In this document: positions 56,701-62,993 of the stretch, one piece after another
Layout of the letters: every line of letters starts with the position of its first letter
How positions within the stretch are numbered: position 1 is the stretch's first letter
Source: Paraspadella gotoi
Lineage: Eukaryota; Animalia; Chaetognatha
Reading direction: 5' to 3'
DNA: 64,000 nt
Assembly: GCA_051294375.1 (NCBI GenBank)
Contig: CM119269.1
Span: 9,303,274 to 9,367,273, forward strand
Position numbers and translations under genes: made by a program
Notes under the pieces: generated by a model
Databases searched by the model: none
The model's input: the letters and a program-made list of their open reading frames with translations, nothing else
Told to the model about the DNA's origin: nothing

Positions 56701-59021
56701 ACGAGTAACCGAACGATACGAACGATACGAACGAACGAACGAACGAACGAACGAACGAACGAACGAGCATTCGTGATTTCACCCGGACGAACTGATTCCA
56801 AGAGAAAAGTCGAGAATAAAATAATGAGACTTTATTGAACACGAAATTATTCCTGGAGAAACTCGTAAATACGGAGTTTCTTCCGGGCGAAACTGTTTTT
56901 GGGAGATTTTAAGCGAAACTAACGATCATAAAATGAATTGGCCTTAGTGAGGCAAGATATCTTTATCAGGTGTAGTTATTAAGGCGTAGTGAAAGTTACA
57001 TACGAAAATTCTAAATGTCAATTATGAACAACATACCATCAGTGAACATTAATTTGTAAAAAAAAAAAAATTATGTTTTTTAATTTTTGCAGTAGGCTAT
57101 ATTTATATATAGTACTATCCTTATAAAATTAAAAAATTTCAAAATAAGCTTTTCTTAATTTTGATTGCAGATTTGAATTCCTCGTCAAAAAGTGATAAAA
57201 GAAAATATAAATTATTTTTTAAAAATTCTTTCATTAAGTGGTTAAAAATTACAAAAACTATATATTTAATATATTAAAAAGTTAATTTTCAGCTTAAAAT
57301 ATAGCTTTTTCTAATTTTTGACCCACTTAATGAAGGAAAAATTTTTAAAAAGAGTTATATTTCTTTTTATCAACTTTTTATGACGAATCCAAATCTGCCA
57401 AAAAAAATCTGTTTTGAAATTTTAACATTTATTGGATTAGTACTAGTATAAATATGGCCTACTGCGTAAATTGTAAAATTTATTAGAAATTTTTTTTTAT
57501 ACATAAATGTTCATTAGTATAATGTTGTTCGTTCCCTCACTTTTAATTTAATTAAAGTTAAATTTAGAAATTTTACTACGCCTTAGTAGTTATGTAGTTC
57601 TCTGAAAATGGATTCTTGAAATCAATAGTTATCTCCTTACCCTCAGCTGCTGACGGGTGAGGCAAAGGTGGGCCAACCTCTCGTCGTCGATGTGAGGTTC
57701 GTGAATCCTCTGCCTGTCAACCTCACCGATTGCAAACTCATGATCGAAGGAGCGGGAGTCGAGAGAACCAAAGTCATTCACATCAGGTGAGTCTCTCTCT
57801 CTCTCTCTCTCTCTCTCTCTCTCTCTCTCTCTCTCTCTCTCTCTCTCTCTCTCTCTCTCTCTCTCTCTCTTTGAAGAAACGTATTTTAGTTAATCGGCGT
57901 TTAATCATCTCGGTGTTCTTTCGTTCGTGAATGTGCTTTGCATTTTGTTTTTAAAAAAACTAAACAAAAATTGCATTTATTTGACTTTCGTTTTTGTTTG
58001 CATGGGCTCTTTAATAGTAAGGAATTATATTTTCAATAATAACCGATACTCTATATCCCTTCAATAACTGAACATAACCAATTAAACAAGGGATGACTTA
58101 AGTTTGTTATGTAAAGATTAAACCAACATCTCTTAATTAAGTATAAACATCAAAAATGCATCGCTGCTTTAAATTCGCCTCATTAAAACGATGAATGACA
58201 AACGTGGATTGTGCAATTATGATTGAAGTTTCACTTTCGTAATGTAGTTGTAGTATGGAATTTCACTAACTTTTAAATTAAACACATTTTTTAAAATCTC
58301 AAACTTCAACAATTAAACTACGAACTTCAAACAGAATTTCCTTGCTCCGCGTTTTTCACTTCGCTCTTCCCAACTACATTACTCTAGTGAATCGAAAACG
58401 AAGAAGTCTTAAAACGAAAACGTCACCCTTCCCCCTCCTTTCCCCATTCTCACCCCCAAGCCCCCCCCCTCTCAAAAAAGTAACCGCAAGTCTATTTTTT
58501 AGCACATAAGAATCCATAGCATAGGTTGAATTTTTGCATTTGTTCGAAACCTTTGCTTCATTCACGAAAAAAAAAAGCGATTTTGTCGGCGAATGCATTT
58601 TTGTCGCTGTTTTGCTCATTTGTTTGTAATAAATATTTTCTTTTCACTCCTGTCTTTTTTTGCCATTCCTTTTTCATCGCCATTTCTCGCGAACTACATC
58701 GACACACATTCAATAAATTATCCACGTTATTGCCCACATTTACAATTCAACTCTCCACCATTCAACCACGCATCCACCTGACCACATAACTGTCATTCGT
58801 CCACCCAACCATTCCACTACCCACCCAACCAACCCAAACTCCCACTCCCACCCATCCACAGAGACGTCAAGGCGGGCGAAGGGATGTCGGAAGTGGTGGC
58901 ACTCCGTCCTCGACGTGGAGGCGTTCGCGAAGTCATGGCCACCTTCTCCTCCAAACAGTTGGTGGGTCTCCACGGATCGGTGGAGATGATGGTTGCTGAG
59001 GCGCCGGTGGCGTCTAGCTAG
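26757..59021 (+). CDS. TGM: Protein-glutamine gamma-glutamyltransferase (transglutaminase)
   Basis: Exons 26757-26760 (ATGG, tentative), 27222-27338, 27703-27825, 28119-28281 (HHT..LIVRRGQTF), 35942-36110, [38589-38485 on -], 40786-40892, 41162-41253, ~42555-42629 (DDDGVLTGRW), 42829-42991 (YGQCWVFAG..RTLGIPCRPVTNF, catalytic Cys), 43783-43976 (SAHD..WNFHVWNE..GWQAIDSTPQE, catalytic His and Asp), [44858-44738 on -], 45670-45747, 46323-46409, 46633-46757, 47310-47380, 48090-48196, 48538-48651, 57647-57786 (FVNPLPVNLTDC..IEGAG), 58862-59021 (..ATFSSKQL..VAEAPVASS*). Confidence 0.95.
29186..29365. mobile_element. HINE/Helentron-like repeat, 3' part (related copies ~34678-34850 and ~39919-40075)
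   Basis: Shared ggcgctagcagtcac.tagatttgagg.. block, a (GACC/GACA)n microsatellite, then tatagagtt + palindrome CCGCGAGTACTCGCGG (29336-29351) + gcaactaaaaa. The copy at 39919 is clearly diverged, so it is a real dispersed repeat. Confidence 0.55.
29993..35420. repeat. ~5.3-kb tandem duplicate of ~24713-29985; likely assembly artefact
   Basis: Collinear copy of the 5' ends of both the MGINESK gene and the transglutaminase gene, with dense 1-nt indels that break the exons. Confidence 0.85.
38485..38589 (-). CDS. TGM: Transglutaminase exon in inverted orientation
   Basis: Minus strand cctag|g TTC GTC GAG ACG.. ..GAT GAC CAG|gtagg reads FVETVNSSGRQKATFRTKHD..FAFNLW.KDDQ (with indels). This is the 'LFNPW..DD' segment otherwise missing between the + exons ending 36110 (phase 2) and starting 40786 (VFM.., phase 0). 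Confidence 0.75.
39533..39745. repeat. ~44-bp minisatellite, about 5 copies
   Basis: Unit agatatagtaggaagatgaaagagatttagtagaaagataatag. Confidence 0.85.
43997..44130 (+). mobile_element. Possible degenerate tRNA-derived SINE in transglutaminase intron
   Basis: Pol III A-box-like TGGCTCAATTGG followed by a GC-rich structured 3' part. The B-box is not clear. Confidence 0.3.
44738..44858 (-). CDS. TGM: Transglutaminase exon in inverted orientation
   Basis: Minus strand acgcag|..|gtaagt reads, with indels, ..PASM.AIK.GKVFLPY.DTPFIYGEVNGDVCNW. This is the conserved 'GPAS..AIK.G..YD.PF.F.EVN.D' segment expected between the + exons ending 43976 and starting 45670. Confidence 0.85.
45151..45231. 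repeat. Perfect 28-bp inverted repeat with 25-nt spacer
   Basis: aatttaggaaaaacagttttgaattgtg (45151-45178) / cacaattcaaaactgtttttcctaaatt (45204-45231). Confidence 0.95.
50570..56150 (+). repeat. ~5.6-kb indel-rich duplicate of ~56170-61465; likely raw-read/assembly artefact
   Basis: Collinear copy of the last two transglutaminase exons and the first ~60% of the long ORF, with dense indels and two unalignable patches (~55505-55600, ~55875-55970). Confidence 0.88.
56560..56766. repeat. (GAAC)n / (ATAAACGAACG)n micro/minisatellite (duplicate at ~50958-51220)
   Basis: Visible directly in the sequence. Confidence 0.9.
57026..57530. mobile_element. Fold-back / MITE-like element with long imperfect inverted arms (duplicate at ~51481-52003)
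   Basis: Left arm gaacaacat..tgaacatt..gcagtaggctatatttata..gcagatttg..tgataaaaga..ttcattaagtgg mirrors right arm ccacttaatgaa..tctttttatca..caaatctgc..tataaatatggcctactgc..aatgttca..atgttgttc. Confidence 0.65.

Positions 59022-62993: not shown

Follow-up and report, generated by a model that had tools for sequence, protein, structure and literature searches.

The window analysed here, a 64,000-nucleotide (nt) stretch of the genome of the chaetognath Paraspadella gotoi (contig CM119269.1), contains a multi-exon transglutaminase gene whose stop codon is followed in frame by a very long open reading frame (ORF). The gene was traced from about 27213 to 59021 by tblastn with an orthologous protein, P0015, and with Pfam (Table 1). 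As in other animal transglutaminases, the Transglut_N, core and C domains are present, together with the motifs YGQCWVFAG, NFHVWNE and WQAIDST at 42822-43978, which we take to be the catalytic triad (Cys-His-Asp); P0015 carries the full domain set of Transglut_N, core and two Transglut_C domains in Pfam. The last exon starts at 58862 and ends with ..VAEAPVASS-TAG (59019-59021). According to the initial annotation, the same frame stays open for 3,969 nt past this stop, and this was confirmed in the list of frames: the extension occupies 59022-62993, with 1,323 codons closed by a TAA at 62991-62993. It is by far the longest of the 166 stop-to-stop frames of at least 100 amino acids (aa) in the window, the runner-up having 288 aa, and the chance of such a length arising from base composition is about 1e-36. 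The other two reading frames over the extension contain 67 and 123 stops. Between the stop and the end of the ORF no AATAAA was seen where 1.7 and 0.7 were expected, which is not a significant deficit. The first ATG of the extension is codon 85 (59274). The 84 codons before it had been described as looking coding; this held in that a conserved motif, AVPAS, lies among them, but the absence of stops from them is by itself weak evidence (P = 0.18 and 0.115).

Transcripts were examined in the sequencing run X1, which was taken as RNA because of its spliced contig, although none of the matching runs is catalogued as RNA, and which contains 0.91 of the words sampled from the window. Six X1 contigs were placed on 57900-64000. 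Contig 1 (2,844 nt, spliced) connects the preceding exon's end with 58862, reads TAG and runs to 59131 with 0 differences, while contig 2 (4,012 nt) spans 59185-63156 and departs from the window at two places, both within the 3′ untranslated region (UTR). Their depths were 89 and 119. RNA across 59021, which the initial annotation had asked to see, is therefore provided by a spliced contig that carries the TAG and extends beyond it, and in the distant relative described below (L001) by one contig throughout. The gap between the two contigs is a GGC repeat, and letters 59132-59184 were skipped in the matching. No joint was found in the X1 contigs on 57900-64000, no other splice or 5′ end is marked in the extension, and the remaining loose ends were two 37-nt matches with 5-6 differences. 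The stop is genuine in RNA and the long ORF is transcribed unspliced; from X1 alone, transcript continuity across the GGC repeat is likely. The stop is not covered by runs X2 and X3, which yielded 2 and 0 contigs on the window and 1 and 0 on L001. X1 contigs of depth 2-3 were also seen at 63346-64000, past the main 3′ end and close to AATAAA sites that lie some 275-435 nt downstream of the ORF; these are possibly a minor longer 3′ UTR or pre-mRNA.

Relatives were found by a metagenome scan with an alignment of the C-termini of the clade to which this enzyme belongs. One of 214 candidate stretches was confirmed (L001), and none of 44 candidate stretches on viral contigs. L001 is a single intronless contig of 7,197 nt with a 357-nt leader, a 794-aa transglutaminase (P0015) ending in AGC-TAG, 1,293 in-frame codons and a 573-nt tail. 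Conservation in relatives had been proposed as a check, and L001 shows it: the stop is again TAG, the same frame is open, the extension is homologous to that of the window (P0001; 34% over 381 aa), and the distances from the stop to shared motifs differ by whole codons. A conserved stop is thus followed, on the same mRNA, by a conserved in-frame coding signature, as is asked of readthrough candidates. Reassignment of TAG throughout the genome was considered and rejected, as L001 has one junction TAG in 2,088 codons and its tail ends in TAG.

Further homologues of the tail are P0002 (1,371 aa) and P0200 (705 aa). The enzyme P0125 and the tail P0002 both have a longest contig of 7,277 nt, and P0127 and P0200 both have one of 5,485 nt; P0015 and P0213, which belong to L001, show the same equality. 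Each pair is therefore probably on one contig, and we infer the layout of enzyme, TAG and tail in four species, with the DNA seen in two. A HMMER profile search for the tail gave 13 matches of 107-715 aa, all of them pieces of the same tail and none with enzyme sequence. In ten blocks conserved three ways (220 codons), the proportions of synonymous and non-synonymous differences were 0.79 and 0.30, and codon positions 1-3 differed 79, 58 and 136 times; these blocks were chosen on amino-acid identity, so that the two proportions are biased. AVPAS is conserved in three of three species, 60 codons before the first Met of the window. The tails range from about 705 to 1,371 aa with motif order kept, and tandem peptide repeats are private to each: about five 13-residue copies in L001 (around 3850-4055), another unit in P0002 (around 460-670), and none in the window. 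In a quick tree of 58 rows the transglutaminase clade forms a long branch, with its 11 rows all together and a support of 100 in the SH-like approximate likelihood ratio test (SH-aLRT). What this clade adds to the usual animal transglutaminase is an Ala-x-Ser linker and a cryptic tail without a Pfam, PDB or Atlas match. For the enzyme itself, the clusters named by the Atlas were generic transglutaminase ones only.

The stop lies within a predicted rod-like hairpin (Table 1), and L001 has an equivalent of 44 pairs (z −4.80; 0 of 200 shuffles). The DNA comparison of stop and hairpin covers two species, the window and L001. Between −5 and +7 relative to the stop, both have 12 standard pairs and one A·C mismatch at the A of the stop (59020/59101 in the window, 2741/2825 in L001), giving UAG opposite CCA, and a U is bulged at the same place in both. 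Pairing is retained through two double changes (A-U/G-C and C-G/U-A) and two one-sided changes (U·G/C-G and C-G/U·G); the next pair, at +8, is retained in the window only. Within 250 nt downstream of the stop, the partner core is the only 9-mer common to the two sequences. Both this core and the context of the stop are the same in the two species, against 7 of 22 matching 4-fold sites in the last exon. The hairpin was found in three of four folding contexts in the window and in four of four in L001. Among the other UAG triplets, 2 of 35 and 0 of 52 have the same geometry, as do 21 of 1,378 and 25 of 2,113 adenosines overall, by a criterion that was set after the site had been seen. When the 5′ flank was left out and the fold begun at the stop, z in the window fell to −0.36, so that the signal needs the 5′ flank. 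The endings of related proteins fit the base constraint that pairing would impose: 18 of 19 distinct C-termini (31 proteins of the clade) end in Ser and one in Asn, compared with Ser at 13 of 130 linker residues and in 7 of 84 other transglutaminases, though the clade sequences share ancestry. For the hairpin, Rfam returned no usable match.

Two further features of this region were noted. The stop context 59014-59021 is self-complementary, with the partner 59100-59107 being a one-mismatch direct repeat of it, and pairing between two mRNAs through this context is possible. The paired A59016 also stands within a UAG triplet, where editing would change Ser to Gly.

In both the window and L001, a UAG stop, whose A has a 5′ U and a 3′ G neighbour, is followed by an in-frame ORF, and the A is predicted to lie in a long imperfect duplex opposite a C. 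This resembles the arrangement of the amber/W site of hepatitis D virus. An A opposite C in UAG context within such a duplex is what the deaminase ADAR prefers, which favours editing. Induced ADAR editing has been reported with a C opposite the target A (PMC10713624; here and below, papers are cited from the accessible parts of their text), the UAG-CCA pair with its A-C mismatch made the most efficient switch (PMC11724285), and ADARs occur in all surveyed animals except Trichoplax, a placozoan (PMC9989829). In the model that we favour, the UAG of the transglutaminase mRNA would fold into the long hairpin with its A opposite C, ADAR would deaminate A59020 to inosine in a minority of transcripts, and ribosomes would read the resulting UIG as Trp, yielding an isoform of about 2,100 aa made of enzyme and tail. 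Since all assembled sequences either carry the TAG or end at it, such editing must be minority or tissue-limited. Fusion of some kind through the stop appears quite probable. Editing by ADAR as its cause is moderately likely, and we marginally favour the wider proposal that a natural, conserved UAG:CCA hairpin serves this whole animal lineage as an ADAR switch that would turn an 800-aa into a 2,100-aa tethered transglutaminase. The initial annotation had already proposed a minor fusion isoform of about 2,100 aa. The transcript, the stop, the frame, the homologous tail shared by L001 and the conserved AVPAS speak for such an isoform, but the anatomy of the site favours ADAR editing over the ribosomal leak proposed there.

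Several observations weigh against this model. The X1 and L001 contigs both read A at the stop and thus give no A-to-G change, although assembled contigs drop minor variants. None of 56 long transglutaminases (1,148-3,654 aa) is a fusion of this clade, and the 31 clade proteins examined whose sequence extends to the C-terminus all end at the stop. In one of the four window folding contexts the ensemble prefers other pairing, and in the other three the pair between the G of the stop and its partner C reaches only 0.54-0.58. Randomised sequences equalled the duplex energy in 94 and 82 of 2,000 cases for the window and in 46 and 17 of 2,000 for L001, a modest signal, and the covariation comes from two DNA sequences. 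The L001 fold from the stop onward has z −2.43, leaving room for a 3′ stimulator. In the available text on Drosophila, editing accounted for none of the tested readthrough events (PMC3840789). Another study is described as dropping only eight genes for mutation or editing at the stop (PMC13278127). As editing was excluded in the fly cases tested, the prior favours ribosomal readthrough.

Programmed readthrough, in which a near-cognate tRNA would read the UAG with help from the 3′ part of the hairpin, would make the same isoform of about 2,100 aa. Gln, Tyr or Lys are the residues inserted at UAG in this way. The conserved in-frame tail would be explained equally well, the lack of an edited base in the contigs is as expected, and the L001 signal from the stop onward fits a 3′ element. 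Readthrough is also common in insects and crustaceans, where tails show islands in disorder (PMC4528330), and fly candidates with 3′ structures are enriched for TAG (PMC5100048). The stem is less easily accommodated, since its conserved, covarying pairs cover the stop and the five bases preceding it, all of which a terminating ribosome must presumably melt, while the part from +8 on is significant in neither species (z −0.49 in the window, −1.81 in L001). The context is UAG-A or UAG-G rather than the leaky UGA-C (PMC5100048), and the C fixed opposite the A of the stop is left unexplained. On these grounds we consider ribosomal readthrough unlikely, and we keep ADAR editing as the preferred explanation.

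Two other explanations would dispense with decoding of the stop. If the tail were a separate protein started at its own ATG, whether through a dicistronic mRNA, reinitiation or a trans-spliced downstream gene, no fusion would be needed; the absence of a fused protein on record, the weak openness of the linker and the break between X1 contigs at the GGC repeat, where X1 alone leaves room for a 5′ end, would all be consistent with this. A Met in F-M-S context is indeed aligned between window codon 85 and L001 codon 63. However, P0002 has no Met at that place (Met in two of three species), the ATG has T at −3 in both window and L001, and the conserved AVPAS precedes it, so that a conserved ATG in good context without upstream coding constraint was not found. 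The first Met also differs between species (codon 85, codon 22, and 16 residues before AVPAS in P0002). The whole-codon differences in stop-to-motif distance and the single L001 contig over the junction also speak against a separate protein, which would leave the hairpin on the stop unexplained and is improbable. Slightly more improbable still is an alternative 3′ splice site joining the donor at 57787 to an AG ending at 59107, which would skip the 52-codon last exon with its stop and fuse a truncated enzyme to the tail. It had been stated that no polypyrimidine acceptor precedes the 84 codons before the ATG; weak in-frame acceptors do exist upstream of the ATG region, such as this one, but none is supported by X1. 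In both species this AG (59107; L001 2831) keeps the reading frame of the donor, and it lies inside the conserved 9-mer. Its tracts are weak, with 65% and 55% pyrimidine and 1 and 4 other AGs within 30 nt, compared with 55-100% pyrimidine in seven used acceptors, five of them at 80% or more. X1 shows no joint or loose end at 59108, the last barrel would presumably be cut, and neither the conserved stop context nor the paired changes would be accounted for.

The tail was predicted by AlphaFold2 on three sequences to be mostly disordered, in agreement with the initial annotation, with a predicted local distance difference test score (pLDDT) below 50 for 881 of 1,063 residues. Two confident helices are predicted in P0001, at about 686-738 and 967-1013. 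A W-P-x-P-P motif, which matches the EVH1 ligand consensus (PMC8639148), occurs at the aligned place once in P0001, P0143, P0002 and P0200 and twice in P0202, and conserved S-P and R-x-x-S motifs are also present. Pfam, PDB, Atlas and Rfam gave no usable match for the tail. Together, the motifs suggest an intracellular, phosphorylated scaffold that would tether, and so relocate, a fraction of the cross-linking enzyme; this is the weakest part of the model. As to partners, we favour putative binding of W-P-x-P-P to Ena/VASP-type actin regulators and of the helices to other proteins. The earlier suggestion of a built-in substrate found no support, as Lys and Gln make up 7.0% and 3.9% of the tail against 5.4% and 2.6% of the enzyme body, which is not notably high. 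A destabilising role, as in fungi (PMC13123824), fits less well with 1,300 residues that carry conserved motifs.

Table 1. Features of the transglutaminase locus, in window coordinates.
Feature	Positions	Strand	Basis or remark
Upstream exons of the animal-type transglutaminase (N-terminal sandwich, catalytic core, barrels)	27213..57786	+	tblastn of P0015; Pfam Transglut_core and Transglut_C on exons
Noisy tandem duplicate comprising the final two exons and the 5′ portion of the extension	50548..56149	+	Likely assembly artefact
Penultimate exon	57647..57786	+	Donor GT at 57787; X1 contig 1 runs into exon end (loose end)
Last exon, coding part: end of second barrel and A/S/T/P linker ending Ala-x-Ser	58862..59018	+	
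Predicted rod-like hairpin enclosing the stop, 46 pairs	59000..59120	+	−66.5 kcal/mol; z −2.75; 1 of 200 shuffles
TAG stop	59019..59021	+	A59020 is the predicted editing site; TAG also at L001 2740-2742
In-frame extension P0001, 1,323 codons, predicted mostly disordered with conserved islands	59022..62993	+	
Partner strand, coding P-A-S of AVPAS	59094..59107	+	C59101 faces A59020 (pair table)
GGC repeat (poly-Gly)	59145..59171	+	Sole interruption between X1 contigs 1 and 2
W-P-x-P-P motif with acidic flanks	60711..60725	+	Agrees with the consensus for Ena/VASP EVH1 ligands
Conserved predicted helix 1 (..TKECRSDS..)	61077..61235	+	
Best-conserved block: HIEGT motif and predicted helix 2 (..KATANIDAMLK..)	61842..62060	+	
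Short 3′ UTR within the main X1 contig	62994..63156	+	Further downstream only contigs of depth 2-3

The window contains several indel-rich repeats of its own sequence. The copy at 50548-56149 aligns to 56159-61466 with 89% identity, 249 gap openings against 155 mismatches, and adjoins a 25-N gap; it is most likely an uncorrected assembly duplicate. Its TAG, at about 53563, is for this reason a second DNA read and not evolutionary evidence. The initial annotation had used this copy to argue against a base-call error: the TAG is genuine, but the duplicate is a likely artefact, and base-call error is instead rejected because the TAG is read in both the X1 contig and L001. Further tandem duplicates of 87-94% identity, likely also assembly artefacts, lie at 25403-35409, 21362-24030 and 10143-12749, and one of them carries the first transglutaminase exons twice. 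Two exons, 38523-38588 and 44742-44841, are inverted onto the minus strand near N gaps, probably as mis-oriented assembly pieces. Elsewhere, an exon at 987-1175 has a weak F-box-like match (E 3e-4, under the curated cut-off). Cys-rich coding-like stretches at 7426-7881, 10413-10628 and 13369-14082 contain repeated C-x-x-x-C-G units without a Pfam match, possibly from a lineage-specific structural protein adjoining the cross-linking enzyme. A frame at 5550-5993, also without a Pfam match, opens with two S-P-T-Y-type repeats, which we take to resemble the heptads of the RNA polymerase II tail.

Hepatitis D virus and fungi provide documented cases of functional stop-loss editing. Isolated stop edits with short tails occur in flies and cephalopods. 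Searches of the open literature, with subscription papers and most supplements outside this scope, showed no transglutaminase with a recoded or readthrough stop and, including the available text of PMC5558901, no animal mRNA in which a conserved ADAR hairpin gates a long tail; supplementary editing tables may list animal stop-loss sites. If the proposed editing is true, one base change would more than double the enzyme and would make cross-linking activity depend on the place and time of ADAR activity, and a stop A opposite C in a covarying stem would become a searchable signature for sorting "readthrough" candidates. The locus would then be a cellular counterpart of hepatitis D amber/W and a natural precedent for engineered ADAR sensors. 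Even if the ribosome were responsible, the extension would be unusually long and conserved, in an enzyme family for which we found none described.

The proposed mechanism can be set against four known systems. In hepatitis D virus, the extension gained at the amber/W site is about 19 aa. There, ADAR1 turns a UAG into a Trp codon in a rod-like RNA and so converts the small into the large delta antigen (PMC10459925), much as proposed here; that system is viral, it is the antigenome that is edited and the extension is short, whereas in the present case a cellular mRNA would carry a cis hairpin in its last exon and a tail of 1,300 aa, with editing inferred. Engineered ADAR switches (CellREADR, RADAR, RADARS and hairpin sensors) likewise use an in-frame UAG opposite CCA to gate a downstream ORF (PMC11724285), but are synthetic, and the transglutaminase would offer a natural, conserved version in cis. 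Fungal stop-loss A-to-I editing (Fusarium DBF2 and PUK1) also combines a conserved editable TAG with a disordered C-terminal extension; it differs in being ADAR-independent, with the target A in hairpin loops and short destabilising tails (24 aa in Dbf2) (PMC13123824), while the A of the present site is predicted to face C within a stem, and conserved motifs occur in the tail. Finally, insect readthrough (kelch, headcase and several hundred others) shares the conserved stop, a patchily conserved disordered tail and sometimes a 3′ structure (PMC4528330, PMC5100048). Unlike the arrangement proposed for the transglutaminase, it is ribosomal, mostly at UGA-C and with structure 3′ of the stop, and editing was excluded where tested, as given in the accessible part of that study (PMC3840789).

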